Below, one piece after another: positions 3,920 through 25,223 of a DNA stretch of 41,639 nucleotides; positions within the stretch are counted from its first letter, which is position 1, and every line of letters starts with the position of its first letter. This stretch comes from Gemmatimonadales bacterium (GTDB lineage Bacteria > Gemmatimonadota > Gemmatimonadetes > Gemmatimonadales > GWC2-71-9): contig JBBSPX010000002.1 of assembly GCA_038258395.1 (NCBI GenBank), forward strand, positions 1 through 41,639. The letters run 5' to 3'. Both the position numbers and the translations under genes were made by a program. Under the pieces are notes generated by a model, which was not told the DNA's origin, did not search any database, and worked only from the letters and a program-made list of their open reading frames with translations.

Positions 3920-3937
3920 GGGGGGGGACTCACCGCC
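3912..3937. terminator. bidirectional stem-loop between convergent genes
   Basis: ggcggtgag (3912-3920) pairs with ctcaccgcc (3929-3937), a 9-bp stem with an 8-nt G-rich loop. It spans both stop codons (TGA at 3917-3919 and tca at 3930-3932). Confidence 0.45.
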
Positions 3938-6900
3938 CTGCAACCACCTCGGCCGGCGCTGAGTCCGTCACGATCACCTGCACCGTGGCAACCGCGGTGA
4001 AGGTCGGATCCTCATACCGCGGACGATCATCGGGACAGAGAAGTCGGGTGCCGTCAATCCGTCCTCCACCCCAGGCATGTCTCAGCACACTGTCGGGAAC
4101 CTGGAGCAGGTCATTGCCATCGTCCCAGACCGCAGTGAGGCACGCCCAGTTCGTCCGCGAGAAGATCCACTGGGCCGCCGGTTCCGCCGCCTGCGCCCAG
4201 ACCAGCCAGTAGGAGCCCGGCGCGGTGGGCGCCGTCATCTCGATCATGGCGCCGAGCGTTCCGGCCGTGGCCCCGGTGATGAGACTCGAGACGCTTGCGG
4301 TGTCGCGGGCGGTGGTCGGGAAAGTCGAACTCCGTGCAGCGAACCAGAGGACGGGAATCGTGGGCGTATCGTAGCGCAGGACGACCCGTCCCGAGATCCG
4401 CTCCCCAGGTGCGACGCGGATGGTCGGCTTGTCGCGCCCGAGTTCCTGCCCATTGACGATACCGCTGTGGATCGACAGCGCGTGGTGGTCATACCCGCGT
4501 GCCAACACGAGTGGCTTGGTCGCCAGCTTGCCGACACCGAAGCTCGCCACCAGCGAATCGTATCCGCTCGGCGCCCAGAGCTGGAACGCCGACGCGATGA
4601 CGCTACCATCGGTGACCACCATCGCGTCGGAGCGGGAGACGGAATCCAACCCAAGCACACTCGTCAGGTGGAGTGGCTGGCCGTCGAGCTTGGTGGAGAC
4701 CTCACCGCGTCGGTTCCGGACCGTGAGCAGCGCACTCACCTCATTCCAGATGGCGGGATGATCGGTGTCCCTCGGGAACATCGCCGGCGTGTTCTCGAGT
4801 CGGAGTGACGCGGGCTGATCCATCCACCAGGACCACGCTTCTGCTCCGCCAAGCAGGACCGTGACCAGCGCCGCGACCGCGGCCACACGAGCGAGTGGGC
4901 CGTGCGTCCACGGTAGTCCGCGCCGCAAGGCCGGGAGTTTCGCCTGCGCTCCTGCACTCGCGGCGAACTGCTTGAGGAGATGTTCGGCACGCCCCGTCAC
5001 GCGCTGCTCACGCTGGTGGGCGATCCACCGGCGCGCCAGATCCGGGAACAGCGTGTCATCGTTGGCGTCCACGGCGTGGCCGAGCGCCCGGATGAGTGCC
5101 CTCCCCCGCTCGGGGCCATCGACTCGGGCCAAGGCGCCGGCGATGGTGCGATGCAGTGCGGTGCGGCGATCATCGGGCAGCTCGCCGAGCGCGGCCTCCG
5201 CATAGCGATCGTGGCTCGCCTCCCATCCCTGCGCGCCCTCGCGCACCAGCCCGGCGAGTTCGAGCGTCTCGAGCGATTGTGTCACGTCGATGCTCGAGGG
5301 GACGAACTGTGCGATCAGGGCCCGAGGGACCGGATGGCCGGCGATGGCGATCGATTCCAGAATGCGGCGGGATCCATCCGGGAGTCCCAGCACACGCTGG
5401 CGGACTGGCGCCCGGCCTTGCAGTGCGGCGGCCACCGCGGTTCGATCTCGTATTGCGAGCACCTCTCCACGCAAGACGATCGCTCCGATCGATTGGAGCG
5501 TGCGCAGCGCCTCGAGCAGGAGCAACGGCGTCCCGGCTGTGGAGTCGGCGAGTTGACCGACCAACCAGGCCTCGTCCGACTCCGGCACGTCCCCCAGTTG
5601 TGCCAGCAAGTCGGTGATGCCCTCGCAGTCGAGCGCCGTCAGCACGATGTGCCCACTCGGAACACCCGGAAGGCCACCGGACTGCCTGCTGGTGGTCACC
5701 ACCAGGAGGGGGGCGCCTTCGAGTCGTGCGACGACGATCCCGAGGATCTCGAGTGACGCCGGATCGGCCCAGTGGAGATCGTCGAGCATCACGGCGATCG
5801 GCTGTTCGTCCATGAGGGTACGGACGAGGTCGGTGGTACACGACAGCAGCTGGTGCGAGTCTGGTGTCCCCTCGTGTGGTGCCGGTGCTCCCGGGAACAC
5901 GCTCTGCAGAGTGGGGACGATGCGGACGAGTGTGGCCGCGGTGCTCTGGTCGATCCCCGCCGCGCCTGACAGTCGGGCCAGCTGATCGAGCGTGGCCGCG
6001 AGGAAACTGAACGGGTAGTGACGTCCACCAGAGACGGCGCGGCAGACCGCCACCGGGGCCGGTAGATCGGTGAGGCGCTCGACCAGCGCTTGGAGCAGGC
6101 GCGACTTGCCGATGCCGGCTTCGCCCTCGATGTGCACCAGCGTCCGCTGACCGGCGGTCGCGTGCTGCCACGCGCCGAGGAGCCGGGTGAACTCGCTGGT
6201 CCGACCCACCAGATCGGGGTGGGCGAGTGGATCGTGTGCCTGGTGTGCGGCGCCATTGGAGCGGTGTCGGACCCAACGATCGATCAGGTCGACCGTGGCC
6301 CGTTGGGGCTGTATGCCGCGAGTGGTGAGTGCGTGCTGGAGCGCCTCGACCTCGTGGCGAGCGGCGCGGCTGTTGCCGGCCTGCACGTGGGCGCCGACCA
6401 GGAGTCGCCAGAAGGGTTGGTGATGAGGATCGAGTTCGCGGGTCTGGATGGACTGGGCGATCGCTGCCTCGTGGTCACCGCGGTCGAGTGCGGCTCCGAT
6501 TGCGGTCTCGGAACTGCTCCGCCACATCCGATGCAGGCGTTCGGCCTCCTCGTCGCGCCACTCCTCGAAGCGTGCACCACCAGGGATTGCGAGGCCCGAG
6601 AGGAACCGTCCCTGATAGAGGTCGGCCACGCGGTCGGTGTTGCCGACGCGGAAAGCTTCGAGGAACTCGTTACGGTCCGATCCGACGCCCGGCTTGAGGC
6701 GGATCAGATCGGCATTGGACTCGAGCTGTTCCGCTCCCAGCACGCGGCGCAGGCTGTGGAGCGTCTGTCGGAGTGCGTGGCGGCCGCGATCGGGGGGGAG
6801 GTTTGCCCAGAGCAGATCGAGCAATTGATCTCGGGTCGCTTCGCCGCCGTTGGCTTGAAGGTAGATGAGCAGCGCGAGTGGCTTGCCGGCGGGGAGGAGT

Positions 6901-6956
6901 GCCGTGCCGCCCGGGGCATCGAGGAGTTGGAAGGCGCCGAAGGTGGTGAGGTACAT
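3930..6956 (-). CDS. SARP/BTAD-family transcriptional regulator fused to an AAA ATPase, one TM helix and a large extracytoplasmic C-terminal domain
   Basis: Start reset to MYLTTFGAFQLL (cat at 6954-6956). It has a winged-helix/BTAD region (LLDLLWANLPPDRGRHALRQTLHSLRRVLG, FEEWRDEEAERLHRMW), Walker A GEAGIGKSRL and Walker B VMLDDLHWAD. The TM helix is VAAVAALVTVLLGGAEAWSWW, followed by about 330 aa of unknown fold. Confidence 0.85.
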   Translation of the reverse strand: MYLTTFGAFQLLDAPGGTALLPAGKPLALLIYLQANGGEATRDQLLDLLWANLPPDRGRHALRQTLHSLRRVLGAEQLESNADLIRLKPGVGSDRNEFLEAFRVGNTDRVADLYQGRFLSGLAIPGGARFEEWRDEEAERLHRMWRSSSETAIGAALDRGDHEAAIAQSIQTRELDPHHQPFWRLLVGAHVQAGNSRAARHEVEALQHALTTRGIQPQRATVDLIDRWVRHRSNGAAHQAHDPLAHPDLVGRTSEFTRLLGAWQHATAGQRTLVHIEGEAGIGKSRLLQALVERLTDLPAPVAVCRAVSGGRHYPFSFLAATLDQLARLSGAAGIDQSTAATLVRIVPTLQSVFPGAPAPHEGTPDSHQLLSCTTDLVRTLMDEQPIAVMLDDLHWADPASLEILGIVVARLEGAPLLVVTTSRQSGGLPGVPSGHIVLTALDCEGITDLLAQLGDVPESDEAWLVGQLADSTAGTPLLLLEALRTLQSIGAIVLRGEVLAIRDRTAVAAALQGRAPVRQRVLGLPDGSRRILESIAIAGHPVPRALIAQFVPSSIDVTQSLETLELAGLVREGAQGWEASHDRYAEAALGELPDDRRTALHRTIAGALARVDGPERGRALIRALGHAVDANDDTLFPDLARRWIAHQREQRVTGRAEHLLKQFAASAGAQAKLPALRRGLPWTHGPLARVAAVAALVTVLLGGAEAWSWWMDQPASLRLENTPAMFPRDTDHPAIWNEVSALLTVRNRRGEVSTKLDGQPLHLTSVLGLDSVSRSDAMVVTDGSVIASAFQLWAPSGYDSLVASFGVGKLATKPLVLARGYDHHALSIHSGIVNGQELGRDKPTIRVAPGERISGRVVLRYDTPTIPVLWFAARSSTFPTTARDTASVSSLITGATAGTLGAMIEMTAPTAPGSYWLVWAQAAEPAAQWIFSRTNWACLTAVWDDGNDLLQVPDSVLRHAWGGGRIDGTRLLCPDDRPRYEDPTFTAVATVQVIVTDSAPAEVVAGR

Positions 6957-7516
6957 GACGTCCGATGGGTCAGCGGGGTGGGAGGACCGCACAAGTGTAT
7001 GCGTTGCGCGACAGCTGGGGAAGGAATCACAGAAAGCTCGCGTCCACGGAATACCATGGTGGGCAAGCGTTTGACGACCCCTGACGCCGGATGACACGAT
7101 CGGAACCGCACTTGCGGACCGGTGGCGCCGTGCAAGCATTCCCCGGCTTTCGCCCCCTGCTCCGTGTGCTGGTCCGGAGGTCGGCGGGCGTGTGATGACC
7201 TGAGTGGTGCGCCCCCGGCCATGAACCTCGGCATCACACGACCTGTCGGCGGGCCAGGACTCAGCAGAGGTCCTGGCCCCGTCCGCTCTGGTCCCAGTGT
7301 CACACCCCATTCGCAGATTTTTCGGGCCTGACGCGGCAGACTCTACCGTGCAGGATGCCGGGTTCGGGCGACATCTGCGAGCGCGCGAGAGTACGGCAAG
7401 TCGTTATCCGGCAACCGGTTGTCGCCGAATGACACCGATTGAATGTGATGGCACAGCGTTCGCATAATCATTTGGCAAGGTATTCCCTTCCCCCCCCGCA
7501 ATTCAGGAGCAGCTGC

Positions 7517-8050: not shown

Positions 8051-8378
8051 TGGTGATGCGGCGGTCGTGATTTTGGAGGAGGGTGTTCTGACGGGGTGTC
8101 CGCATACGACCGGAATAGTCCGATCGGTGATCAAGGAGTGGGCGGGGAGGACCAAGGAGGCGATGTGACGAGTAGGGTGCTGCATCTATGCTCCGTATCC
8201 TTTATTTGGTGGCCTTGGCCTGAATCCTCTACGATTACCGCACTATGGCTCTTGTGGATTCCACTGCAAGCAAAGGCTTCGCTGAGTCAAGACTGGCAGC
8301 CACCGGCAGCACCTTTCCCTCCGCTGGTATAACGGAGTTGCCAAACAATCCCCCAGTCCATTGGGAGGGTCTCGCACG

Positions 8379-9875
8379 ATGAGCCGAATCCAACTCATCC
8401 CACCAGCAGCGTCCTTGATGGGATCGATGCGCGGTGTGGGCTACGACGCCAAAACTGCAGTCGCAGATCTCATTGACAATTCGATCTCAGCCGATGCGCG
8501 AATTGTTTGGCTCAGCTTCAACTGGGCCGGGGCAGGTTCCACGGTTGGTATCCTTGATGACGGGCACGGCATGAGTCCCGAGGAGCTCGAGAGGGCGATG
8601 ACCCTCGGGAGTTCTCACCCGAAGAAGAAGCGGGATGCTGGTGATCTTGGGCGCTTTGGATTGGGTCTCAAGACTGCGTCTCTATCTCAGTGCAAACGCT
8701 TCATGGTCGCAACCAAGAGAGAGGGGCAGCCGATCGTCCTGATGGTTTGGGACTTGGATGTAGTCGAAGCGACCAACGATTGGGTCGTCGAGTCGACCTG
8801 CAGAGAAGCAGAGCGCAGTGCGCTTGAGCGCCTTGAGGGGCTGCATCACGGCACCTTGGTGCTTTGGAGCAATTTGGATCGGTTGCTAGGTGAAGAACTG
8901 ACTGAAGACGCGGGGTTGGTGCGAGACTTTCAGCGCATTGCAAGTGAGGTGGAGACACATCTGGAGATGACTTTCCATCGCTTCCTTGAGGGGCCGTCCC
9001 CAAGTCTCCGACTGTATATCAACGGAACTGACGACGAGTTTCGCGTCAAATCCTGGGATCCGTTCTATCAGCGCAATCCCGCTACTCAGCAGCTCCCGAC
9101 CGCAAGACGGGGCACACGCGGAGGGCAGATCGAGCTCCAAGGGTATGTGTTACCACACAAGGATCGGGTCCCTTCGAGCGAAGCAGAAATGGCGTCCGGA
9201 CCGAACGGGTGGATCGGGCAACAAGGATTCTATGTCTATCGGAACCGACGCCTCTTAGTGGCTGGTTCGTGGCTGGGGCTCGGGCGCCCTCGGCGGTGGG
9301 GCCGTGACGAGCAACACAAGCTTGCGAGGATCCGTCTCGATTTACCCAATTCAATGGACGCTACGTGGGCGCTCAACATCACAAAATCCACGGCAAAGCC
9401 CCCTCCCGCGCTCCGCGAATGGCTCACACGGATGGCGGAACAAGTCAGAGACCCCGCCCGCGAGGTTTTTGTTCACCGGGGACAACGGGCCACTCCTGGC
9501 CCGAAGGCCACCTACCACCCGCTCTGGTTGGCAGGTAGCGGCATGGCGCCGGTCTACTACATCAATCGGGACCATCCAACCGTGAAGGCGTTCATTGACG
9601 GAAGCGGTACCATTGGGATTCGTGCCCTATTGACGTTGTTGGAGTCTACTGTGCCGGTCCATCGGATCTGGCTCGACGTCTCCGACAAGCCCGAGGCTCC
9701 TCGCCCAGCCTCGACACAAGTAGCGGAAAAGGACATTCTCGCCCTTGCGCGAGACTTGGTGCGAAGCCTGATGGGTCAGGCAACGATCTCGCGAGAGCGC
9801 GCGGTGGCACAACTTCGGTCGATTGAGCCGTTTGACCAGTTTCCCCATATCCTCGCCGAGTTGGAGTCAGAATGA
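8379..9875 (+). CDS. GHKL-superfamily (HATPase_c_3, MutL/MORC-like) ATPase; first gene of the four-gene cassette
   Basis: ATG at 8379 sits about 10 nt after GGGAGGG. Bergerat-fold motifs are present: ADLIDNSISAD (N box), LDDGHGM (G1) and GRFGLGLKTAS (G2). Confidence 0.9.
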   Translation: MSRIQLIPPAASLMGSMRGVGYDAKTAVADLIDNSISADARIVWLSFNWAGAGSTVGILDDGHGMSPEELERAMTLGSSHPKKKRDAGDLGRFGLGLKTASLSQCKRFMVATKREGQPIVLMVWDLDVVEATNDWVVESTCREAERSALERLEGLHHGTLVLWSNLDRLLGEELTEDAGLVRDFQRIASEVETHLEMTFHRFLEGPSPSLRLYINGTDDEFRVKSWDPFYQRNPATQQLPTARRGTRGGQIELQGYVLPHKDRVPSSEAEMASGPNGWIGQQGFYVYRNRRLLVAGSWLGLGRPRRWGRDEQHKLARIRLDLPNSMDATWALNITKSTAKPPPALREWLTRMAEQVRDPAREVFVHRGQRATPGPKATYHPLWLAGSGMAPVYYINRDHPTVKAFIDGSGTIGIRALLTLLESTVPVHRIWLDVSDKPEAPRPASTQVAEKDILALARDLVRSLMGQATISRERAVAQLRSIEPFDQFPHILAELESE

Positions 9876-12682
9876 GATTGAGCCCAGAAGCGTTCCCCCT
9901 CCTCAACGTCGTCCGCATCTTCCTTTCCGGGGAGGCACGCGACGGAACTCTTCTCGACCGTCAGCACATCACCCAGACGGTAGAACGATTTGCTCCGATC
10001 GCCGGTCCCGGGCTGGATGCCCGCGACCTCGATGTGGTGATCAGTGAGCTGGAGAAGAGCTTCAATGTGTGGTCCGGTCGAGCTGGGGCTTTGCTGGGGA
10101 ATGATCCGGGCTATCAAGCTTGGTTGCCGGGCCGCAAGAGCGACGTGGATTGGCGGTTTTGGAATCGATACCGCCTGTTCATAGCCGGGAAGTTCCCACC
10201 ACGAGTTGTGGAGGAAATGGACAGCGTCACCGACGAGGTACTCGGCTATCTCGAAAATCCCGATCGAGTTGGAGCATGGCGCCGACATGGCTTGGTTGTC
10301 GGCCACGTCCAATCAGGGAAGACCGCGAATTATACTGGACTGATCTGCAAGGCAGCCGATGCGGGATATAAAGTCATCGTCGTACTGGCAGGAATTCACA
10401 ACAGTCTACGCTCCCAGACACAAATCCGACTAGACGAGGGCTTTCTCGGATATGCTCGGCCGTTTGACGGGAGCACAGCGCACGGAACGCCTGTCGGTGT
10501 TGGGCTCATCGATCCCAGTGTGATTGCGGATACGGTGACCACACGTGACGACCGGGGAGACTTCAGCGCACCCAAAGCACAGGGGTTCCAGATTCACGCC
10601 GGAGGGAACGTACTCTTGTTCGTCGTGAAGAAGAACGCTTCCGTGCTCAAGAATCTCCTCACGTGGGCTGAACTCAACGCGAAAACGACGACAGCGTCCG
10701 GTAGAAGGGTTGTCTCAGACGTTCCCCTGCTCGTAATCGATGATGAGGCAGATCAGGCTTCGATTGACACCAATCACCAAGTGTTTGACGAACACGGGTG
10801 CCCCGATCCTGACCATGACCCCAAGCCTATCAACAAGCTCATCCGCAGTGTTCTGCAACGATTCGAAAAGGCTGCATACATCGGGTACACGGCAACTCCG
10901 TTTGCGAACGTATTCATTCACCATCGCGGTGAGACCGACAAGCTCGGGCCCGATCTGTTTCCAAAACACTTCATTGTCAACCTCGCTGCTTCGACAGACT
11001 ATTTCGGGCCCGCCAAGGTGTTCGGCTTTGCAGAATCGATGTTGCCAACCCATGGAACTGTCCCGAGTCGCCTCCGATTCATCTCGGATGCGGAAGAGTG
11101 GTCACCACCATCCCACAAGAGCAGCTTGGTGCCGCGCTATAGGGGCAAGGACGGACTGCCACCATCCCTGCAGAAGGCGATCAGATCATTCATCCTCTCC
11201 TCTGCCGCTCGCCGGGCGCGCGGTCAAGAGCGAACTCACAAGTCGATGCTGGTCCACGTCACGCGATTCACGGATGTTCAGCGAATCGTGCATCGCCAAG
11301 TGCACAGATTTGTCGAGGAATTGCGCAATAGGTGGCGGAGCCGGTCGACGACCGCCGGAGAGACTGTGTTGGAGGACTTCCGGACTATGTGGCAACATGA
11401 TTTTGTCGCGACCTCACGTGCTCACGGCGGAAATGTGCCAAGCTGGGATCTTGTCGAACCCCACATTTGGCCGATTCTTGAAGTGGTAAAAGTGAACTTG
11501 ATCAATGCGAAAGCCAGCGATGCGCTGATCTACCAGGAGCACTCCAGGGATGGACTGCACGTCATCGCCATCGGCGGCGACAAGTTGTCGCGGGGCTTGA
11601 CGCTCGAAGGGCTAAGTGTCAGTTTTTTCCTACGTGCTTCACGCATGTATGACACCCTGATGCAAATGGGGCGGTGGTTCGGTTACCGCCCTGGGTACGA
11701 AGACCTCTGTCGCCTCTACCTCTCCGAAGAGCTCTCAAACTGGTACACCCACATCGTGGAGGCGTCCGAGGAATTGCGTGCAGAATTCGATCGGATGGTC
11801 CTCGAAAATGGCACACCGGAGGATTACGGATTTCGTGTTCGTACCCATCCCGTGTTGGCAATAACTGGGAAACTCCGCCCAGGGCTCAGGGAGATCACAA
11901 CGTCGCTGAGTGCAACCCCATTCGAGCCGACAATTCTCCGCGAGGACCGGGTGCTCGAAAACTGGGACTCCACCCTCGCCTTTCTGGGTTCCATCAGCGC
12001 AGCGCCGACGGTAGGTTTCCAGGCTGACGATTCAGGGGCAGAGGAACGGCGAGGTTCATGGCCTGGATCGGTCCTCTGGAGGGATGTCCCTGGGAGCCGC
12101 GTACTTGAATTCCTGAGGCGCTACAGCTTTGCGGACCAAGATCTCACTCGAACGCCATCGAGCGTTGTCCGAGACTACATCACTCAACGGATCGGTGAAG
12201 GTGAACTGACAGCATGGACTGTTGTACTCCTCGGCAAGCTCGACCCAGATGACAAGAACCCGTCAGTGCCGTACGGTATTGACGCCGTGCCGGACGGATT
12301 CCAGACTCTCTTTCGGAAGTACCACGGTACGATGCGAGCCGACCGGTACGTTGTGAAGCGAACTGGCAGCCCGAAGGACGAGGCCATCGACCTGACTCCT
12401 ACGGAATGGAAGCAAGTGGTTGAGCAGCGGAGTCGACTGTCCAAGTCCGTGGACGACGCCAAAGAGTACCGACTTGGCCGTCTTATTCGCCAAGCCCGCC
12501 CCGCGAGCCGTGCTCTCCTCATCCTCTATGCTCTGACGCCGTCGGAGAAGAAGCTGCCGAATGGGGTGGCAGTGCCAATGATCGCGCCATACATCAGTTT
12601 CCCGTATTCGAAAGCGGCATCCCCTATTACCTACAAACTGACAGCTCTTTACTGGGAGCAAGAATTGAGTGGGTCGGAATGA
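9872..12682 (+). CDS. Z1-domain protein (SF2 helicase-like ATPase)
   Basis: ATGA overlap with the upstream gene (9872-9875). It has Walker A GHVQSGKTANY, a DEAD-like box LLVIDDEADQAS, and the Z1 signature GGDKLSRGLTLEGLSVSFFLRASRMYDTLMQMGRWFGYRPGYEDLCRLY. Confidence 0.9.
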   Translation: MRLSPEAFPLLNVVRIFLSGEARDGTLLDRQHITQTVERFAPIAGPGLDARDLDVVISELEKSFNVWSGRAGALLGNDPGYQAWLPGRKSDVDWRFWNRYRLFIAGKFPPRVVEEMDSVTDEVLGYLENPDRVGAWRRHGLVVGHVQSGKTANYTGLICKAADAGYKVIVVLAGIHNSLRSQTQIRLDEGFLGYARPFDGSTAHGTPVGVGLIDPSVIADTVTTRDDRGDFSAPKAQGFQIHAGGNVLLFVVKKNASVLKNLLTWAELNAKTTTASGRRVVSDVPLLVIDDEADQASIDTNHQVFDEHGCPDPDHDPKPINKLIRSVLQRFEKAAYIGYTATPFANVFIHHRGETDKLGPDLFPKHFIVNLAASTDYFGPAKVFGFAESMLPTHGTVPSRLRFISDAEEWSPPSHKSSLVPRYRGKDGLPPSLQKAIRSFILSSAARRARGQERTHKSMLVHVTRFTDVQRIVHRQVHRFVEELRNRWRSRSTTAGETVLEDFRTMWQHDFVATSRAHGGNVPSWDLVEPHIWPILEVVKVNLINAKASDALIYQEHSRDGLHVIAIGGDKLSRGLTLEGLSVSFFLRASRMYDTLMQMGRWFGYRPGYEDLCRLYLSEELSNWYTHIVEASEELRAEFDRMVLENGTPEDYGFRVRTHPVLAITGKLRPGLREITTSLSATPFEPTILREDRVLENWDSTLAFLGSISAAPTVGFQADDSGAEERRGSWPGSVLWRDVPGSRVLEFLRRYSFADQDLTRTPSSVVRDYITQRIGEGELTAWTVVLLGKLDPDDKNPSVPYGIDAVPDGFQTLFRKYHGTMRADRYVVKRTGSPKDEAIDLTPTEWKQVVEQRSRLSKSVDDAKEYRLGRLIRQARPASRALLILYALTPSEKKLPNGVAVPMIAPYISFPYSKAASPITYKLTALYWEQELSGSE

Positions 12683-13674
12683 CGGAGGCTACTGAGGTCT
12701 TCCGCGAACTCCTTTCCTCGATGCCGGATGCTGCTGGGCGTGGCTACCGTGCCTTTGGTGGGCCGGACGGGATGACGGCTGTGGCGTTCATTGACGGAGC
12801 GACCAAGCGGCCCGGCCTTGAACTCAAGTTCCGTACGAAGTCCATACCTCGAGATTTTCAGATCCCCCTGATGCGCGGGGCGCTGGTCTCCCGCAGCCTC
12901 CAACCGTCGGGGGCAGATGCGGTCACAAGCTTCGAGATTATGGCCGCAGGAAGCGAGCACGCCGAAGTCTTTACCGAATTGGCAAGCCGACTGATCGCGG
13001 ACTGCTGTGCGGCCCAATCGTCCGGCGTGGCGCTACAGACAGTTTCGCGTCGATTGTCAGCATGGGTGCGATTCTTCAGTACTCGGGGGCCGGACGGCTT
13101 GTCGCGTACTGCAGAGCTGGGTCTCGTGGGTGAATTGCTTTGCCTCAAGGCGATAGCTCCCCACACGGGCCTCCCCGCTGCGGTGCTCGCGTGGCAGGGG
13201 CCCAGTGGTGGCCCACATGATTTTGTTCTTCACGGCGGTGGAGTGGAAGCGAAGTTGACTACATCAAGTGCCCCGGAGGTCATTCACATCTCTTCGGTCC
13301 GCCAACTTGATGAGTCCGTCTTGGACTTCTTGCTGCTCTTCGTTGTATTGGCCCAAGAGGTGCCTGAAGGCGTCTCGCTATCCAGACTTGTTGCGGAACT
13401 CCGCCAAGAGCTATCGGGGCGGGATCCAGCCGCGCGAAGTCACTTCGAGGATCAGCTCGTGTCGGCTGGCTGCACGGACAGCGACCTCCAGAAGGCATGT
13501 CGTGCGCTGCACTTCCACCGCCAAGAGTTCCTCCGCGTTGGTGGCGATTTTCCGCGAATTCTTCCGGGCGAAATTCGCACGGGCGTCGGGTCCGTTCGCT
13601 ATGACATTAGCTGGGGGGTCATTGCCCCCTATCGACTGGAAGGTGACCAATTGGAGACTCTTCTCAATGGATGA
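12679..13674 (+). CDS. PD-(D/E)XK motif protein (predicted restriction-endonuclease-fold nuclease)
   Basis: ATGA overlap with the Z1 gene (12679-12682). The candidate nuclease core is GGPHDFVLHGGGVEAKLTT (D ... E-x-K). Confidence 0.75.
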   Translation: MTEATEVFRELLSSMPDAAGRGYRAFGGPDGMTAVAFIDGATKRPGLELKFRTKSIPRDFQIPLMRGALVSRSLQPSGADAVTSFEIMAAGSEHAEVFTELASRLIADCCAAQSSGVALQTVSRRLSAWVRFFSTRGPDGLSRTAELGLVGELLCLKAIAPHTGLPAAVLAWQGPSGGPHDFVLHGGGVEAKLTTSSAPEVIHISSVRQLDESVLDFLLLFVVLAQEVPEGVSLSRLVAELRQELSGRDPAARSHFEDQLVSAGCTDSDLQKACRALHFHRQEFLRVGGDFPRILPGEIRTGVGSVRYDISWGVIAPYRLEGDQLETLLNG

Positions 13675-15745
13675 TTCCGTTGCCGCATGCCGAGACTTTG
13701 CCGAACAGCTGAACACGGAAGTTCGTGAGCGGGCAGCCTTGGGGGAGCCCTATTCCACGGAACTCGAATGCTTCGCGAGCAACGTCCTGACGCTGTTCGA
13801 AGAGGCAGGCGTTGTGGAGGATCCTGAGGTGTGCGTGCGTGGCGGGACACTTGGACGGGCCAAGTGGGAAATCGCAGGATGGGCCTTCCCGCCTTCGGAG
13901 GAGGAAGATCTCTCCCAATTGTCAGTGCTCGCCGTGCTCTTCCATGACGACCCCGAGATGCCGCCAGCATCTGGTGCGGAGCTCCGGCGACGGGGAGAGC
14001 TCGGGGTTCACTTCATCCGTGAAATGCTGGCCGGCCGAGCGGACGAGCTGGAGCCTGCGGCCGATGCCGCAGCTCTTGGTCGCATTATCCATGAACGACG
14101 GCACGCTCTGACACGTGTGCAGATTCATCTTGCTACCGACGGAATGACTCAGAGGCTTCGCGAAATTGAACCGGTGGATATCGATGGCGTTCAGGTCACC
14201 TGCAGCATCTGGGATATTGAGCGGCTGAGCCGGCTTGGTGATGCCTGGCAGGAAGATATCGAAATTGATGTTCCTTCCATGCTCGATGGGCAGGGGTTGC
14301 CGTGTTTGCGCGTGCCGGAAGAGGACCCCCACTACGACGCGTACCTGTGCGTTGTACCTGGGGTCTTGCTGTACAAGGCCTATGAGCAGTATGGGCAGCG
14401 GCTCTTGGAGCTGAACGTCAGGTCCTTCTTGTCAGGTACAAATAAGGTCAACAAGGGGATCCGTGAGACAATCCGAACCACTCCAGAACGATTCTTCCCC
14501 TACAATAATGGACTTGCTTTGACGGCCCGGAGCGTCGAGCTGCGGCAGACTGCCACAGGCCACTCAGAAATCACCCGGATCGTCGGGTTGCAGGTTGTCA
14601 ACGGCGGCCAAACCACCGTCTCTATCCATCGGGCGTGGAAGCTGGACAAGATGGAGGCGAATGTCAGGCAAGTCTTTGTACAGGGCAAGTTGACCGTCAT
14701 TACCACGGCCGAGGGTGATGGTGAAGGATTTGTGGAGATGGTTCGGAGCATCTCAAAGTTCGCCAACAGCCAGAGCGCTGTGCGGGCAGACGACCTAGAG
14801 GCCAACCAACCTTGGCATATTCTGTTCGAGAAGTTGTCTCGGGCTGTATGGACCCCAGACGCTCAGTCACACTGGTTCTACGAGCGGGCCCGGGGATCCT
14901 ATTCAGTTGCCAAGGCAAAGGATGCAACAACACACGCTCAGAAGGCTGCCTTCGACAGGTTGTGGCCGCGGAGACAACTCATTACGAAAGTAGATCTCGC
15001 CAAAGCGGTAAATGCATGGAATCAGCAGCCACAAACGGTCAGCCTAGGTAGCCAGAAGAACTTCAAGGCGTTTATGCACCAGCTTGGAACCCAGGTGCAC
15101 ACACCAAGGCTGGATGAGGACCTGTTCAAGCACATCATCGGACAGGTGATCGTCCTTCGCGAAGCAACAAAGTTGGTGCGCGACTTGAAGAACAGCATCC
15201 CGGCCTTCCGTGCGAACGTAGTCGCCTATTTGGTCAGCTATTTGTCGTTCCGGCTTCCGAATGGGCTCGATTTCAAGCGTATTTGGGAGCAACAGGAAAT
15301 GCCGTCGGCGGTCCGCGACACACTGAGCGCCTGGGCAGAGCCAATCTACGATACGATGGTTGTGTCTGCCGGGGGGCGCAATCTGTCGGAGTGGTCGAAG
15401 AAGGACGGGTGCTGGGAGGCGGTGAAGCACCTCGATCTCAGCCCAACGAGCGACCTCGACCGGCACGCCGCCACCGATGGAACGGGAAAGGCAGTCGGCT
15501 TGGTAGATGCGGCTGAGGCGGGGGAGATCTCCGAGTGCACCTCACTGACACTCGAAGAGTGGGACAGTCTGCTAAAGTGGGGCCATGAAGCTGAAAACTT
15601 GCACTGGAAAGTTCAGGGGATCATCAACACACTGCGTTCCTACGCTCTCCAAGGATGGAAGAAGCCACCGAGTGTCAAGCAGGCACGCAGCGCAGCAAAG
15701 GCGATTCGGAGCTGGAAGGAGGATGTCGGAACGGGCTCGCCCTAG
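13667..15745 (+). CDS. AIPR (abortive-infection phage-resistance) family protein
   Basis: Start reset to MDDSVAAC (ATG at 13667), an 8-nt overlap (ATGGATGA) with the upstream stop. AIPR-type signatures FFPYNNGLALTA and GLQVVNGGQTTVSIHRA are present. Confidence 0.85.
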   Translation: MDDSVAACRDFAEQLNTEVRERAALGEPYSTELECFASNVLTLFEEAGVVEDPEVCVRGGTLGRAKWEIAGWAFPPSEEEDLSQLSVLAVLFHDDPEMPPASGAELRRRGELGVHFIREMLAGRADELEPAADAAALGRIIHERRHALTRVQIHLATDGMTQRLREIEPVDIDGVQVTCSIWDIERLSRLGDAWQEDIEIDVPSMLDGQGLPCLRVPEEDPHYDAYLCVVPGVLLYKAYEQYGQRLLELNVRSFLSGTNKVNKGIRETIRTTPERFFPYNNGLALTARSVELRQTATGHSEITRIVGLQVVNGGQTTVSIHRAWKLDKMEANVRQVFVQGKLTVITTAEGDGEGFVEMVRSISKFANSQSAVRADDLEANQPWHILFEKLSRAVWTPDAQSHWFYERARGSYSVAKAKDATTHAQKAAFDRLWPRRQLITKVDLAKAVNAWNQQPQTVSLGSQKNFKAFMHQLGTQVHTPRLDEDLFKHIIGQVIVLREATKLVRDLKNSIPAFRANVVAYLVSYLSFRLPNGLDFKRIWEQQEMPSAVRDTLSAWAEPIYDTMVVSAGGRNLSEWSKKDGCWEAVKHLDLSPTSDLDRHAATDGTGKAVGLVDAAEAGEISECTSLTLEEWDSLLKWGHEAENLHWKVQGIINTLRSYALQGWKKPPSVKQARSAAKAIRSWKEDVGTGSP

Positions 15746-15766: not shown

Positions 15767-16010
15767 ATGGCCGCCGAGATGAGACTGCACTGCACCACGA
15801 TCGCCCGCATCAGGCCAGCACACGGCCTGCAACCGCATCGTGTCACGTCCTTCACGCTCTCGCGCGACCCCCACTTCGTCGCCAAGCTGGGTGATGTCGT
15901 CGGCTTGTACGTCAATCCAGCAGCGCGGGTGGTGATCCTTTCGTTCGAAGAGAAAAGCCAGATCCAAGCGCTTGATCAGACCCCGGCGGGCCTCCCGCTC
16001 GAGCGCGGCA
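15767..16010 (+). pseudogene. IS630-family transposase fragment (N-terminal/linker part only, no DDE domain)
   Basis: The translation TIARIRPAHGLQPHRVTSFTLSRDPHFVAKLGDVVGLYVNPAARVVILSFEEKSQIQALDQTPAGLPLERGK matches the conserved IS630 region (...HGLKPHR..TFKLS.DP.F..K..DVVGLY..PP......DEKSQIQALDRTQP.LP...G). Similarity stops around 16010 and no catalytic domain follows. Confidence 0.7.
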
Positions 16011-16065
16011 AGTGGGCAGCATCAGCGTCACACGCGGCAAAGGTAGCTTGCGCCCCACCTCTTCC

Positions 16066-16083: not shown

Positions 16084-17352
16084 ATGTCCCTCCGAACAGA
16101 AGCCGAAATCACCCCAGCAGCTCGCCTTCGGGCCTTGCGCGTCGATCTCGGGCTCACTCAAGCCCAAGCCGCGGAACTTGTCGACTATTCCGAACGCCAG
16201 ATTGCACGCTGGGAATCGGGGGAGGCACCAGTTCGTTCCGTCGTGCTGACAGCCTTGGAGTCGCATCGTGACCGAACTCGGGACGAGGAATCGAACTTCA
16301 CCTTCATCGACCTCTTCGCCGGGATCGGCGGATTTCACCTCGGCTTCAAGAGTGCGGGCGGACGCTGTGTTTTTACCTCCGAGTGGGACAAGTTCTCGAC
16401 GATAACGTACAAGCGTAATTTTCCTGGACACCGCATCCACGGAGACATCCGTACCGTCGAGGCGACCGACATCCCGGACCACGATGTGCTTCTTGCAGGC
16501 TTCCCGTGCCAGCCGTTCAGCATAGCCGGTGTGTCCAAGAAGAACTCACTTGGTCGGAAGCATGGCTTCGAGTGCGACACACAAGGCACCCTCTTCTTTG
16601 ACATCGAACGCATCATCGCGGAGAAGCAACCTCGCGCGTTCGTGCTCGAGAACGTGAAGAACCTGATGTCTCACGACCGAGGCAATACATTCGCGGTGAT
16701 CGTTCACACCCTCCGTGAGAAGCTCGGTTACAAGCTCTCGTGGCAAGTCCTCGACGCCCAGCACTGGGTGCCCCAACATCGGGAACGAGTCTTCCTGGTC
16801 GGCTTGCATCCTGATCTCGGAGCGAAGTTCGATTTCGACGAAGTCATCATCCCGGACGAAGGGCCCTTGCTCAGGAGCATCCTCCATCCGACCGACGGAT
16901 CTGGTCCGGTTGAAGAGCCTTATACCGACAAGGCCGGAAGACCGAACAAGAAGTACGTCCTTTCCGATCACCTCTGGGGCTATCTCCAGGACTATGCATC
17001 GAAACACAAGGCGAAAGGCAACGGATTCGGGTTCGGCATGGTCACGGCGCAGGGAGTCTCACGGACCCTTTCCGCACGATATCACAAGGACGGTTCGGAG
17101 ATCCTGATCAACCGTGGGCGAGGCAACCCCAGGCGCCTGACCCCTCGCGAATGCGCACGCCTGATGGGATTCGATCGGACGGGGTACGAACCCTTCAAGA
17201 TCGAAGTCTCCGACACGCAGGCGTACCGCCAGTTCGGCAATGCCGTTGCTGTCCCGGTGGTGTCGGCCGTCGCCAAGGCACTCGCGCCCTACCTTCGTGG
17301 TGAACGGACCGGCCATGGTATCGAGGCGGCGATGGAGCTCGAGCTCGTCTGA
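16084..17352 (+). CDS. dcm: DNA (cytosine-5)-methyltransferase with N-terminal XRE-type HTH domain
   Basis: The HTH is LRALRVDLGLTQAQAAELVDYSERQIARWESG. C5-MTase motifs are all present: I DLFAGIGGFHLG, IV GFPCQPFS, VI ENVKNL, VIII QHRERVFLVG, X QFGNAVAVPVV. Confidence 0.95.
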   Translation: MSLRTEAEITPAARLRALRVDLGLTQAQAAELVDYSERQIARWESGEAPVRSVVLTALESHRDRTRDEESNFTFIDLFAGIGGFHLGFKSAGGRCVFTSEWDKFSTITYKRNFPGHRIHGDIRTVEATDIPDHDVLLAGFPCQPFSIAGVSKKNSLGRKHGFECDTQGTLFFDIERIIAEKQPRAFVLENVKNLMSHDRGNTFAVIVHTLREKLGYKLSWQVLDAQHWVPQHRERVFLVGLHPDLGAKFDFDEVIIPDEGPLLRSILHPTDGSGPVEEPYTDKAGRPNKKYVLSDHLWGYLQDYASKHKAKGNGFGFGMVTAQGVSRTLSARYHKDGSEILINRGRGNPRRLTPRECARLMGFDRTGYEPFKIEVSDTQAYRQFGNAVAVPVVSAVAKALAPYLRGERTGHGIEAAMELELV

Positions 17353-17354
17353 CG

Positions 17355-17759
17355 ATGGCCGACATCGTCGATCGCGCGACCCGCAGTCGAATGATGAGTG
17401 GGATCCGTGGTCGGGATACCGCACCTGAATTGATCGTCCGATCACATCTTCACCGGGCCGGGCTTCGTTTCCGTCTCCACCAGAATGACTTGCCCGGTCG
17501 ACCCGATCTGGTTCTGTCGCGTTGGGATACCGTGGTTCTAGTCCACGGCTGCTTCTGGCATCGTCATGCAGGTTGTCGGTACGCGACGACCCCAGCGAGC
17601 AATCGTCAGTTCTGGCAGGCAAAGTTCCAAGCGAACGTCGAACGCGATATTCGGAATCGTGCGGAACTCCGGAAGCTGGGCTGGCGGGTATTCACCGTCT
17701 GGGAGTGCCGGACCGGCACTCGAGCGCTTGATTCTCTCGTGAGAAAGATCCGTCGATGA
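17355..17759 (+). CDS. vsr: very-short-patch repair endonuclease (T:G mismatch, 5mC deamination repair)
   Basis: RSRMMSGIRGRDTAPELIVRSHLHRAGLRFRLHQNDLPGRPDLVL...VLVHGCFWHRH...FWQAKFQANVERDIRNRAELRKLGWRVFTVWEC is collinear with E. coli Vsr. The gene starts 2 nt after the dcm stop. Confidence 0.95.
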   Translation: MADIVDRATRSRMMSGIRGRDTAPELIVRSHLHRAGLRFRLHQNDLPGRPDLVLSRWDTVVLVHGCFWHRHAGCRYATTPASNRQFWQAKFQANVERDIRNRAELRKLGWRVFTVWECRTGTRALDSLVRKIRR

Positions 17760-19006
17760 GTGAACAGTCTGCCGAACTTCTGGAGTTCGAGCACTGGTTG
17801 CTTGAAGTCTCCGGCCCCGAGTGGCTCTGGCACGTCAAGTACCTGGCGGCAAACGACACCTGCGCGAAGTCCAATGTGCACCAGAGTGGACCGCATATCA
17901 GCAGGGCACTCATCACCACGGCTTTCCCCGCACTTACCGCTCGGGCCGAGCGGATCAAGAATCCTGACTTGATTCTGCCGACCGTCGTCGATAGCCACAC
18001 GGAGTCGATGGATCTCCGACTGGTCTGGTACAACACCAAGCGAGTCGAGAGCAAGAAGAACGGTCGAGACGAGGCTCGATTGACCAGGTGGGGTGGTCAG
18101 GATTCTGCCGTGGTTCAGTCTGATGCCACCGGTTCACTGGTGGTGTTCGCATTCCGGCTGCAACCTGGCCGGGATGCTGATGCGCTTCGCGTCTGGCGAT
18201 GTCGATCCATCGAGGAGGAAGACTTTCTGCTCGAACGGATCGACACCGTCGAACCCGGGCGTGGCCAGCTCATCAGTCCGACGGGTTCCTACCTCGGGCA
18301 TGAGGCGGCTGGGCCATGTGCACTCACCGACGATGAGATCCCCGAAGAGTGGCGGACAGCATTCCCTCCGGGAGACGCGATCGTCCAATGGGTGATCCGG
18401 AATCGTCGTGATGCCGGTCGGCCGGTCGACAAGCGTCTGCTGTCACGGCGGGACTGTGAGTTCGAAGTGTTCCGATCCATCGAGCGGTTCCACGCCATGC
18501 CGCGAATCAAGAATGGATTCACATCAGTGGATGCCTTTGTCGAGTTCGCTGGTTCCCTCACGAATCGCCGCAAGTCGCGCAGCGGCAGGTCACTCGAACT
18601 TCAGGTCAAGCAGATTTTCGACGAGGAAGGCGTCCCCTATAGTTGGACACCAAAGACGGAGCATGGTAAGACGCCAGACTTCATCTTCCCTTCGATCGAC
18701 TCATACCATGATGCATCCTGGCCCGCGGAACGACTCCGAATGCTGGCGGCCAAAACAACCTGCAAGGACCGATGGAGGCAGGTGATCAATGAGGCAGACC
18801 GGATCGGCCTCAAGCACCTGCTCACCCTACAGCAGGGCGTATCCTTCGCCCAACATTCGGAGATGCGCCAGGCAGGAGTTCGCCTCGTCGTGCCCAACGG
18901 ACTGGTCAAGTCATATCCTGATGAAGTCGTCCCCGAGCTGATGTCGCTGGAGCACTTCATGGCGGACGTGCGATCGACCTGCGGTTCGAGAGATGAGATG
19001 CACTAA
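17756..19006 (+). CDS. EcoRII-family type II (IIE/IIP-like) restriction endonuclease
   Basis: ATGA overlap with vsr. The N-terminal effector domain is FEHWLLEV...HVKYLAANDTCAKSNVHQSG (compare EcoRII FHNWLLEI...YIKRLSANDTGATGGHQVG). The C-terminal catalytic region is NRRKSRSGRSLELQ...KTPDFIFPS...LRMLAAKTTCKDRWRQVINEADRI...LLTLQQGVS...GVRLVVP, nearly collinear with EcoRII (NRRKSRAGKSLELH...KKPDFLFPS...LRMLAVKTTCKDRWRQILNEADKI). Confidence 0.9.
   Translation: MSEQSAELLEFEHWLLEVSGPEWLWHVKYLAANDTCAKSNVHQSGPHISRALITTAFPALTARAERIKNPDLILPTVVDSHTESMDLRLVWYNTKRVESKKNGRDEARLTRWGGQDSAVVQSDATGSLVVFAFRLQPGRDADALRVWRCRSIEEEDFLLERIDTVEPGRGQLISPTGSYLGHEAAGPCALTDDEIPEEWRTAFPPGDAIVQWVIRNRRDAGRPVDKRLLSRRDCEFEVFRSIERFHAMPRIKNGFTSVDAFVEFAGSLTNRRKSRSGRSLELQVKQIFDEEGVPYSWTPKTEHGKTPDFIFPSIDSYHDASWPAERLRMLAAKTTCKDRWRQVINEADRIGLKHLLTLQQGVSFAQHSEMRQAGVRLVVPNGLVKSYPDEVVPELMSLEHFMADVRSTCGSRDEMH

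Positions 19007-20161: not shown

Positions 20162-20163
<2 letters not shown>
20143..20163 (-). terminator. stem-loop overlapping the kinase stop codon
   Basis: gacggcgcc-gta-ggcgccgtc forms a perfect 9-bp stem. There is no U-tract. It sits next to a REP-like palindrome (cccgagcg...cgctcggg, about 20083-20140). Confidence 0.35.
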
Positions 20164-22912
<2,749 letters not shown>

Positions 22913-24143: not shown

Positions 24144-25223
24144 TTGAATAAAACTATCCGCCCCCTCCGCGAGCTGGACCCGCGCCGATTCGAGACCCCG
24201 ACCATTCTGAGAGCATTGGTGGGAGCCTCGCGCGCGCTCGCCGAGCTCAAGGGGGTGATCGCCTCGATCCCGAATCAGCAGATCCTGCTGAACACGCTTG
24301 GGATCCAGGAGGCCAAAGACTCATCGGAGATTGAGAACATCGTGACCACCCACGATGAACTCTTCCGGGAAGCCTCACTGCTGGAGGCGAAGGGCAACCC
24401 GGCAGCGAAGGAGGTCCTCCGCTACCGCCAGGCGCTCAAGGTCGGCTTCGGCCTGATCCAACATCACGGGCTCCTGACCAACAACGATATCATCCGGATC
24501 CAGCAGGAACTCGAGGCGAACGACGCCGGCTTCAGGAAGTTGCCGGGGACGACACTCAAGAACTCCGCGGGCCGTGTCGTATACACTCCGCCGCAGGACG
24601 GGACCGAGATCAGTCGGCTGATGACCGAGCTGGAGTGCTTCGTGAATGGCGAGGTCGATTATCCGGTGGATCCGTTGATTCGGATGGCGCTGATTCATCA
24701 CCAGTTCGAGAGCATCCACCCCTTCTACGACGGCAATGGTCGGACCGGCAGGATCATCAACGTGCTCTACCTGGTGAAGGAGGGGCAACTCGATCTCCCG
24801 GTGCTCTACCTGAGCCGGTTCATCGTGCAGAACAAGTCCGAGTACTACCGGCTATTGCAAGCAGTCCGGCAAGAGGACGCCTGGGAGGACTGGGTGCTGT
24901 ACATGCTCCGGGCAGTCGAAGACACCGCGCTCGCCGGCGTCCAGACAGTGAAGGCGATACACTCGGCGCTTCTCGAAGTGAAGCATCAGGTGCGAGCCAA
25001 CTACAAGTTCTACAGTCAGGATCTGATCAACAACATCTTCTCACACCCGTATACCAGGGTTCAACTCATCGAGGAAGAGCTTGGCGTCTCCCGGATAACT
25101 GCCACGAAATACCTCAACCAACTCGCCGATGGAGGGGTCCTCGACAAGGTGAAGGTTGGTCGCAGCAATTTCTACATCAACACGCGCCTGTTTGCAATCC
25201 TTACCGCATCGGATCAGCAATGA
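24144..25223 (+). CDS. fic: Fic-family protein (class II, N-terminal inhibitory helix; SoFic-like architecture with C-terminal winged helix)
   Basis: The active-site motif is HPFYDGNGRTGR. The inhibitory motif [ST]xxxE[GN] appears as SSEIEN in the Fic_N region. The C-terminal segment ITATKYLNQLADGGVLDKVKVGRSNFY looks like a wHTH. TTG start. Confidence 0.9.
   Translation: MNKTIRPLRELDPRRFETPTILRALVGASRALAELKGVIASIPNQQILLNTLGIQEAKDSSEIENIVTTHDELFREASLLEAKGNPAAKEVLRYRQALKVGFGLIQHHGLLTNNDIIRIQQELEANDAGFRKLPGTTLKNSAGRVVYTPPQDGTEISRLMTELECFVNGEVDYPVDPLIRMALIHHQFESIHPFYDGNGRTGRIINVLYLVKEGQLDLPVLYLSRFIVQNKSEYYRLLQAVRQEDAWEDWVLYMLRAVEDTALAGVQTVKAIHSALLEVKHQVRANYKFYSQDLINNIFSHPYTRVQLIEEELGVSRITATKYLNQLADGGVLDKVKVGRSNFYINTRLFAILTASDQQ

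Follow-up and report, generated by a model that had tools for sequence, protein, structure and literature searches.

How might a putative restriction complex tell self from nonself when the methyltransferase beside it already has a nuclease of its own? The question is raised by a four-gene cassette at positions 8379 to 15745 of a 41,639-nucleotide stretch of Gemmatimonadales bacterium DNA (GenBank assembly GCA_038258395.1, contig JBBSPX010000002.1, positions 1 to 41,639), hereafter called the window. The cassette encodes a GHKL ATPase, a Z1-domain superfamily 2 (SF2) ATPase, a DUF4420 nuclease of the PD-(D/E)XK fold, and an AIPR protein, and its presence, complete with catalytic motifs, is confirmed and lies far above chance. 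On balance, we think it probable that the four genes specify an ATP-dependent restriction complex of the Mza family that is tied to C5-cytosine methylation of the host, with 5-methylcytosine (5mC) serving as the mark of self.

What does the cassette consist of? All four genes lie on the plus strand. The first, at 8379 to 9875, encodes an MzaB-like GHKL ATPase of the MORC/MutL type (498 amino acids; Pfam HATPase_c_3, E value of 3e-32; PADLOC MzaB, 2e-127). It is followed at 9872 to 12682 by the gene for an MzaC-like Z1-domain SF2 ATPase, a putative translocase of 936 amino acids (Z1, 8e-81; PADLOC MzaC, 3e-216), and at 12679 to 13674 by that for an MzaD-like DUF4420 PD-(D/E)XK nuclease of 331 amino acids (DUF4420, 1e-50; PADLOC MzaD, 1e-19). 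The last gene, at 13667 to 15745, encodes an MzaE-like AIPR protein of 692 amino acids (AIPR_N, 2.5e-25; AIPR, 1.5e-80; PADLOC MzaE, 2e-100). Adjacent genes overlap, as read directly from the DNA, by ATGA at 9872 to 9875, by ATGA at 12679 to 12682, and by ATGGATGA at 13667 to 13674. The homologues of MzaB through MzaE thus stand in canonical order in one operon, and the PADLOC alignments are near full length. The ATG at 8379 is supported as the start of the first gene by a Shine-Dalgarno-like GGGAGGG 9 to 10 nucleotides 5' of it and by the alignment to the MzaB profile, which begins at residue 4 of the protein. An initial annotation of this DNA, made without database searches, had described four coupled open reading frames (ORFs) forming a single operon and had read GHKL, Z1, PD-(D/E)XK, and AIPR domains in them. 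The coordinates and overlaps are as it gave them, and the Pfam and PADLOC profiles that it proposed to run return significant matches for all four proteins, which bears out the domain calls.

The motifs on which those calls were based are all present, and each is conserved in at least 95% of homologues, according to alignments of 42 to 79 homologues from independent loci. In the GHKL ATPase, the N-box, G1, and G2 residues (D30/N34, D60-G62-G64, and G91-K98) are conserved at this level across 79 homologues. The same holds for the Z1 protein at Walker A (G144-T151), the DEAD-like Walker B box IDDEAD (289 to 294), motif III (TAT, 340 to 342), and motif VI (QMGRWFGYR, 598 to 606), the four motifs being invariant. 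In the DUF4420 protein, E152, D181, and E190-x-K192 are invariant and the catalytic D...ExK is intact. The NGGQT of the AIPR protein (N312-G313-G314-Q315-T316) is among 54 positions conserved in at least 95% of homologues. As for structure, the closest solved relatives of the GHKL ATPase are MORC4, MORC2, MORC3, and MutL, while sequence searches for solved structures of the Z1, DUF4420, and AIPR proteins gave no significant match. An AlphaFold2 model of the DUF4420 protein (pLDDT of 89, pTM of 0.80) places D181, E190, and K192 on strands 182 to 184 and 187 to 194; the AIPR model has a pLDDT of 84 and a pTM of 0.48, and both models are of usable confidence. Foldseek comparison of these two models to the Protein Data Bank gave no match at an E value of 1e-3 or below. 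The AIPR model does bear a weak likeness to McrC, HamA, and MspJI (probability of 0.25 to 0.66), which is not relied on here. The idea that its NGGQT belongs to a ParB/DGQHR-like, modification-sensing NTPase domain, as in GmrS and SspE, was dropped since the fold search gave it no support. Pfam searches of the N- and C-terminal regions of Z1, the N domain of DUF4420, the AIPR tail, and the C-terminal half of the GHKL protein added nothing new.

What might these proteins do together? In the arrangement we propose, which keeps the clamp, translocase, and nuclease suggested in the initial annotation, the Z1 ATPase would translocate on DNA, the MutL/MORC-like GHKL ATPase would act as an ATP-gated, dimerizing clamp that couples the parts, the DUF4420 protein would cut incoming DNA, and the AIPR protein would be an obligatory fourth subunit. 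5mC made by the linked methyltransferase (MTase) would mark self DNA, and Vsr would repair the T:G mismatches produced when 5mC deaminates. For the cutting step, activity has been reported in a homologue: a 2022 preprint on the Escherichia coli mzaABCDE system describes cleavage of phage DNA in vitro by purified MzaD and impaired defense in the nuclease mutants D187A and P297A. In that study T4(C) and T4 containing hydroxymethylcytosine (hmC) were restricted 10^3- to 10^4-fold and T4 with glucosyl-hmC about 10-fold. Growth of the infected cells was not arrested, whatever the multiplicity of infection, which speaks against an abortive-infection mode. The initial annotation had held that no biochemistry had been described for such a system, a statement now out of date, and had offered AIPR as a possible abortive effector, which the lack of growth arrest in the E. 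coli homologue argues against. Papers that cite Gao et al. (2020) attribute phage protection by Mza to that work as well. A preprint of December 2025 still terms the mechanism of Mza unknown, and our literature search found no experiment on any MTase-linked member.

How close is the cassette to Mza proper? Its four protein families, their order, and the overlapping of the genes are those of MzaABCDE (Gao et al., 2020), as represented by NCBIfam models NF041931 to NF041935 and the PADLOC models MzaA to MzaE. The fifth Mza gene is mzaA, which encodes a sigma-70 family factor of about 700 amino acids and lies directly upstream of mzaB. A tblastn search with Enterobacter MzaA across the 41.6-kb window found nothing (best E value of 0.75), so that the copy here would operate without control by an MzaA sigma factor. 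Scores against the NCBIfam equivalog models were 499 bits for MzaB (cutoff of 850), 813 for MzaC (1500), 148 for MzaD (420), and 431 for MzaE (1050). In an Enterobacter locus carrying canonical MzaABCDE, all five proteins exceed their equivalog cutoffs, MzaA with 829 bits against 800; the window Z1 protein is about 41% identical to the MzaC of that locus. With scores at roughly half of the cutoffs and no mzaA, the cassette is a relative of canonical Mza rather than a strict member. The correspondence to Mza first suggested for it therefore stands at the level of family, by PADLOC matches and gene order, and fails at the level of strict membership. A further difference is that the window cassette is linked to C5-MTase, Vsr, and EcoRII genes, whereas canonical Mza has none of them nearby.

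The cassette does belong to a class that has been described before, the C5-MTase-linked paraMORC-Z1-DUF4420-AIPR class. Iyer, Abhiman, and Aravind (2008; PMC2292703) predicted that MORC and paraMORC GHKL ATPases take part in restriction-modification (R-M) systems together with SF2 helicases, restriction-fold nucleases, mostly cytosine methylases, Vsr, and AIPR; the initial annotation was correct to cite this prediction, whose components match those found here. Miller, Stern, and Burstein (2022; PMC9523054) defined a putative system with a core of Z1, DUF4420, and a cytosine MTase, to which AIPR and a MORC protein are joined in their type II, a type with only about 20% identity to mzaBCDE. The window shares with both descriptions a Z1 protein of about 925 amino acids, DUF4420, a cytosine MTase, AIPR, and a MORC-like ATPase, and, as is usual in this class, Vsr is nearby while mzaA is often absent. 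All the defining features are in place: an intact Z1, the D...ExK of DUF4420, an adjacent C5-MTase and Vsr, and both AIPR and GHKL proteins. The window differs from the 2022 class in that its MTase is of a minority Dcm/EcoRII type with a conventional Type IIE nuclease attached. A composite of this kind was reported by Puigbo et al. (2017; PMC5379612) in an island of Corynebacterium diphtheriae BH8, which combines an EcoRII-like enzyme, Z1, an Xre-HTH-Dcm-like methylase (HTH, helix-turn-helix), and DUF4420; that island belongs to another phylum, is known from annotation, and is likened to the window by gene content alone. The arrangement as a class has thus been on record since 2008, 2017, and 2022, and the window copy adds no new component to it.

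Why connect the cassette to cytosine methylation at all? The answer comes from related loci. Z1 homologues number at least 8,000 distinct proteins at E values of 1e-10 or below, in bacteria and archaea, the closest named relatives being from Gemmatimonadaceae. We surveyed 80 fetched loci, with Z1 proteins 37 to 48% identical to that of the window, from many bacterial phyla and from methanogenic archaea, and added closer metagenomic contigs. Of 84 loci, nearly all retain the HATPase-Z1-DUF4420-AIPR order, and pairwise identities of Z1 and AIPR covary (rho of 0.88). When all flanking ORFs of 82 loci were clustered without labels, only three neighbor families recurred: C5-MTase, Vsr, and an MzaA-like sigma factor. 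C5-MTases were found in 72 of the 82 loci, each of the 72 matching PF00145; for Vsr, clustering gave 43 loci and tblastn 61. Every other neighbor family (AspBHI-like, HNH, AbiE, integrases, WYL, a second AIPR) occurred in at most 4 loci, and no N6 or N4 MTase was among the recurrent neighbors. With MTases counted within 7 kb, a C5-MTase was present in 50 of the 51 fully flanked loci (those with at least 5 kb on each side), the sole exception being the canonical Enterobacter Mza. It is because of this near-constant partnership, and because no N6 or N4 MTase recurs, that we draw a functional tie between cassette and MTase. The initial annotation had called for such a survey of linkage to C5-MTase and vsr, and its outcome is strongly positive.

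The layout of some loci is tighter still. In one of them (L087), an MTase-Vsr-HATPase-Z1-DUF4420-AIPR series runs on a single strand with 4-nucleotide overlaps at most junctions and one of 14 nucleotides between DUF4420 and AIPR. In 19 of 58 loci the gene directly after AIPR, and on the same strand, is vsr; MTase genes are often oriented the other way. Conventional restriction enzymes are few among the ORFs adjoining the MTase or Vsr; most loci with the typical MTase thus have none, which leaves the cassette as the sole candidate for a nuclease partner there. The MzaA-like sigma-70 factor was present in 40 of 82 loci, always directly 5' of the GHKL gene on the same strand; at about half of the loci, this is more than the "few" of Miller et al. 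(2022). These factors carry a long N-terminal extension (e.g., L016 6399 to 8357, L036 6133 to 8337, and L085 3112 to 5364), and most loci that bear one also have the MTase and Vsr.

The MTase of the window itself is a different matter. It was placed at 16084 to 17352 by the initial annotation, and there it is, starting 339 nucleotides 3' of the end of the AIPR gene: a C5-cytosine MTase of 422 amino acids on the plus strand, Dcm-like and fused to an HTH domain (DNA_methylase, 2e-84, with HTH_31/HTH_3). A vsr gene begins 2 nucleotides past its stop codon, at 17355 to 17759 on the plus strand, and encodes a very-short-patch repair endonuclease of 134 amino acids (Vsr, 3e-26; TIGR00632, 135.8 bits against a cutoff of 97.85). 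Overlapping the vsr stop codon by ATGA is a gene that the initial annotation lacked, at 17756 to 19006 on the plus strand, for an EcoRII-family Type IIE restriction endonuclease of 416 amino acids (EcoRII-N, 4e-26; EcoRII-C, 2e-64, both near full length), which is 43 to 47% identical to plasmid-borne EcoRII-family enzymes over 95% of its length. An endonuclease with both EcoRII domains beside a Dcm-type MTase and Vsr makes an EcoRII-type Type IIE R-M system, and the coupling of the three genes indicates that the neighboring methylase is part of a self-contained operon of that type. Identity of the MTase to E. coli Dcm is 52% over both its catalytic and its target-recognition regions; judging from the conservation of the latter, the enzyme is probably specific for CCWGG. 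This sequence is mildly underrepresented (114 observed against 150 expected in the whole window and 22 against 30 in the island that holds the cassette), which fits CCWGG-directed R-M or methylation and is not decisive. The earlier idea of a 5mC MTase as part of the cassette's system thus finds strong support in the family, where linkage is found in 50 of 51 loci. This particular MTase is not of the family-typical sort, being Dcm-like and placed in an R-M operon of its own.

Where, then, is the typical MTase? Among the 72 MTases, 55 are of a type with about 520 amino acids, 7 of a type with about 330 amino acids, and 4 Dcm/EcoRII-like (those of the window, L002, L018, and L033). L001, the nearest relative of the window, has a cassette rated at 85% identity (80 to 87% in protein sequence) and is syntenic on both sides; at the nucleotide level the two cassettes are 78% identical and the genes to the right of the island 87%. 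Between its AIPR stop codon and that right-hand gene are a typical MTase on the opposite strand and Vsr. At the same interval the window has an IS630 scar and the Dcm-like MTase-Vsr-EcoRII operon. The scar is an internal fragment of an IS630-family transposase at 15767 to 16012 on the plus strand (NCBIfam transpos_IS630, 2e-8; ORF residues 5 to 82 corresponding to positions 94 to 169 of the 299 in the model); it occupies the gap between the AIPR stop and the MTase start, is absent from L001, and is probably a trace of the event by which the EcoRII module arrived. In the history we propose, the family-typical MTase of this lineage would have been replaced by the Dcm-like module in that IS630-associated event, after which one MTase, probably CCWGG-specific, would shield the host from both EcoRII and the cassette.

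It is very probable that the two lineages differ in the sequence that they methylate: identity of the L001 MTase to E. coli Dcm is only 25% and is confined to the N-terminal half, the target-recognition region showing no resemblance. The cassette, for its part, is under strong purifying selection, the dN/dS ratio between the window and L001 being 0.04 to 0.10 for all four genes. A comparison of the two cassettes for a hypervariable specificity segment found none; the lowest 40-residue windows are 62 to 68% identical, and with no window below 62% identity, no specificity-like segment has changed along with the methylase. Nor is this juxtaposition unique, as EcoRII-type modules have been set beside the cassette repeatedly and in differing arrangements. 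They lie upstream of it in L002 and L003, likewise upstream, in opposite orientation, in L018 (from a Caulobacter genome), 3 kb downstream, inverted, and behind an integrase fragment in L088, about 8 kb from it on a Devosia plasmid, and in the published C. diphtheriae BH8 island (PMC5379612).

Several of these facts weigh against a 5mC-licensed complex. (i) The canonical Mza loci of Enterobacter and E. coli have no MTase or Vsr within 7 to 9 kb, and a validated enterobacterial Mza that lacks a linked MTase suggests that methylation is perhaps not needed in cis, or at all. (ii) The window MTase has its own cognate nuclease, EcoRII, and an insertion sequence scar stands between MTase and cassette, so that the adjacency could be secondary. 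(iii) The MTase has been swapped without a compensating change in any segment of the cassette, which is hard to reconcile with a classical, sequence-matched R-M pair. (iv) The identity of typical MTases tracks that of Z1 weakly (rho of 0.39). The first three points also count in favor of the leading rival, in which the cassette provides methylation-independent defense by sensing an infection cue or some DNA feature other than 5mC, with MTase-Vsr(-EcoRII) being an independent neighbor in the island. In its favor, the E. coli system is active against phage, the MTase-Vsr-EcoRII operon in the window is complete and internally coupled, and the IS630 scar lies between the two blocks. Set against it are the 50 of 51 loci and the fact that C5-MTase, Vsr, and MzaA alone recur, the L087 locus in which MTase and Vsr share one overlapping operon with the cassette, and the placement of Vsr directly after AIPR in 19 of 58 loci. 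In addition, E. coli DX6, which carries canonical Mza, has a chromosomal dcm-vsr, so that methylation could be supplied in trans. We regard methylation-independent defense as unlikely, though it is the rival to be taken most seriously.

Could it be that 5mC is the license, but not in any particular sequence? By this proposal, which we put forward as a tentative and rather unlikely one, the Mza family would be a "reverse McrBC" licensed by 5mC as such or by any host C5-MTase, and not by one matched sequence. Three lines lead to it. (i) C5-MTases and Vsr alone accompany the cassette. (ii) The cassette has stayed unchanged while MTases of probably different specificity were exchanged beside it, as seen in the window, in L001, and in Listeria. 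(iii) The host of an MTase-less Mza, E. coli DX6, has Dcm and Vsr encoded on its chromosome. Enterobacteria generally carry chromosomal Dcm and Vsr. In DX6, canonical mzaABCDE (L089, NZ_CP126345.1 1984864 to 1994064) has no MTase within 9 kb, and dcm-vsr lies 47 kb away (L091 36018 to 37886). Canonical mzaABCDE was found in 55 of 5,426 complete E. coli genomes; that of DX6 sits beside yecA, in an island with DUF2787 and insertion sequence elements. The Listeria evidence comes from a study in which a REBASE methylase is listed as part of an mzaABCDE system and isolates that carry it show G5mCWGC or G5mCNGC methylation; by elimination, the Mza-linked MTase there probably has yet another specificity, likely G5mCWGC. 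This argues against a single family-wide motif and is compatible with a generic 5mC license. A related candidate, CCWGG methylation throughout the family, is weakened by the same Listeria motifs and by the dissimilarity of the typical MTase to Dcm in the target-recognition region.

Which known system, then, does the 5mC-licensed complex that we favor most resemble? Type I and Type III R-M and DISARM likewise combine an SF2 ATPase, a PD-(D/E)XK nuclease, and a self-marking MTase, and the cassette most likely follows this ATP-dependent R-M logic. It differs from them in having no recognizable specificity subunit, in its extra GHKL and AIPR proteins, and in its exclusive association with C5-MTase and Vsr; none of the families that define Type I, Type III, or DISARM appeared in Pfam and PADLOC scans of the window. 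The BbrUII/HgiDII-family restriction enzymes with GHKL domains offer a weak NCBIfam match (8e-7) to the N-terminal ATPase fold, with 28 bits against a cutoff of 550, and are single polypeptides, unlike the four-gene cassette. The Type III analogy can be pressed further, to a version in which the C5-MTase is the recognition subunit, as Mod is for Res, so that a swap would change the specificities of modification and restriction together. This would suit the repeated exchange of MTase subfamilies around a conserved cassette and the lack of a specificity-like variable segment in its four proteins, and Z1 (SF2) with DUF4420 (PD-(D/E)XK) does resemble a split Res subunit. Yet the typical MTases of about 520 amino acids, those of about 330, and the Dcm-like ones would all have to dock on the same complex, the MTase is often encoded on the opposite strand, and canonical Mza works without a linked one. 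We consider this version improbable.

A repair function is a further alternative. A MutL-like ATPase, a helicase-like ATPase, a nuclease, and Vsr might excise the T:G mismatches or lesions that stem from the linked C5-MTase, with defense as a side effect. The association is indeed with C5-MTases and Vsr exclusively, many loci have Vsr in one operon with the cassette, and Iyer et al. (PMC2292703) draw a parallel to MutL-Vsr-UvrD in very-short-patch repair. The strong phage protection given by the E. coli homologue, and the cutting of phage DNA by its nuclease, are difficult to view in this light, and the loci are horizontally mobile islands beside defense genes (AbiE, AspBHI-like, HNH, EcoRII). 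In the window, moreover, vsr is joined to its MTase and EcoRII neighbors and not to the cassette, and altogether a primary role in repair seems decidedly improbable. That the cassette is a decaying passenger, inactive after the loss of its cognate MTase, might be suggested by the missing typical MTase and by the insertion sequence remnant that abuts the AIPR stop, but with four intact ORFs, overlapping start and stop codons, fully conserved catalytic residues, and the low dN/dS ratio, it is very improbable indeed.

The cassette and the EcoRII module together make up an island of low GC content at about 8.05 to 19.0 kb (57 to 61% GC, against 65 to 69% in the flanks). Its left edge is a noncoding leader at 8051 to 8378, presumably the promoter region, between a gene for an outer membrane protein and the first gene of the cassette; these 328 bp hold nothing but short unsupported ORFs. 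A scan for promoters (by consensus) and terminators, a tRNA scan, an Rfam search, and a search for repeats flanking the island yielded nothing useful. To the left are the host gene for the outer membrane protein, a beta-barrel, and one for a BTAD/AAA_16 regulator of 1,126 amino acids (3930 to 7310, minus strand). To the right are a gene without an assigned function and one for a Ser/Thr kinase of 916 amino acids with a zinc ribbon and TPR repeats (20162 to 22912, minus strand). The regulator and the kinase genes have host-like GC content, and related loci show no link of either to the cassette. A second low-GC patch, at about 24 to 26 kb (59 to 63% GC), contains a gene for a Fic/DOC-family protein (Fic_N, Fic, and SoFic-like_C; 24144 to 25223) and may be another horizontally acquired element.

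Some related loci have features of their own. AspBHI-like methyl-directed enzymes, which depend on 5mC, adjoin the cassette and C5-MTase in several loci (L085 12556 to 13725, L061 2839 to 4005, and L037 15963 to 17129), with a further related group in L065, L070, and L072, and on a Thalassospira plasmid one such gene sits between mzaE and the MTase. An enzyme that makes 5mC beside one that cuts at it is an unexpected pairing. A small subvariant of three loci, including L075 (15639 to 16454), has a gene for an HNH endonuclease about 32 nucleotides (the cluster median) 3' of AIPR. Finally, in L086, a relative with 57% identity that lies on a contig of 1.09 Mb, no DUF4420 protein was called between Z1 and AIPR (10826 to 11811), and a 231-amino-acid ORF on the opposite strand was called instead, which could reflect a disrupted nuclease gene or an artifact of gene calling.

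What does the window contribute to an understanding of this family? Its value is as a natural experiment, in which a methylase has been replaced by an EcoRII module across an IS630 scar, and not as a new system. Among defense-gene families with a mechanism still unexplained, that of the cassette is one of the most widespread, and comparison of the window with its relatives sharpens the question of how such a system separates self from nonself: the link to C5-MTase and Vsr is near obligate, the MTase is exchangeable, and the one validated system without an MTase is found in hosts that have Dcm. Were the license a generic 5mC, Dcm would be the self-marking partner of Mza in trans, and the window would show the same pairing in cis. 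Dcm, whose purpose in E. coli has long been unclear, would thereby be given a role.

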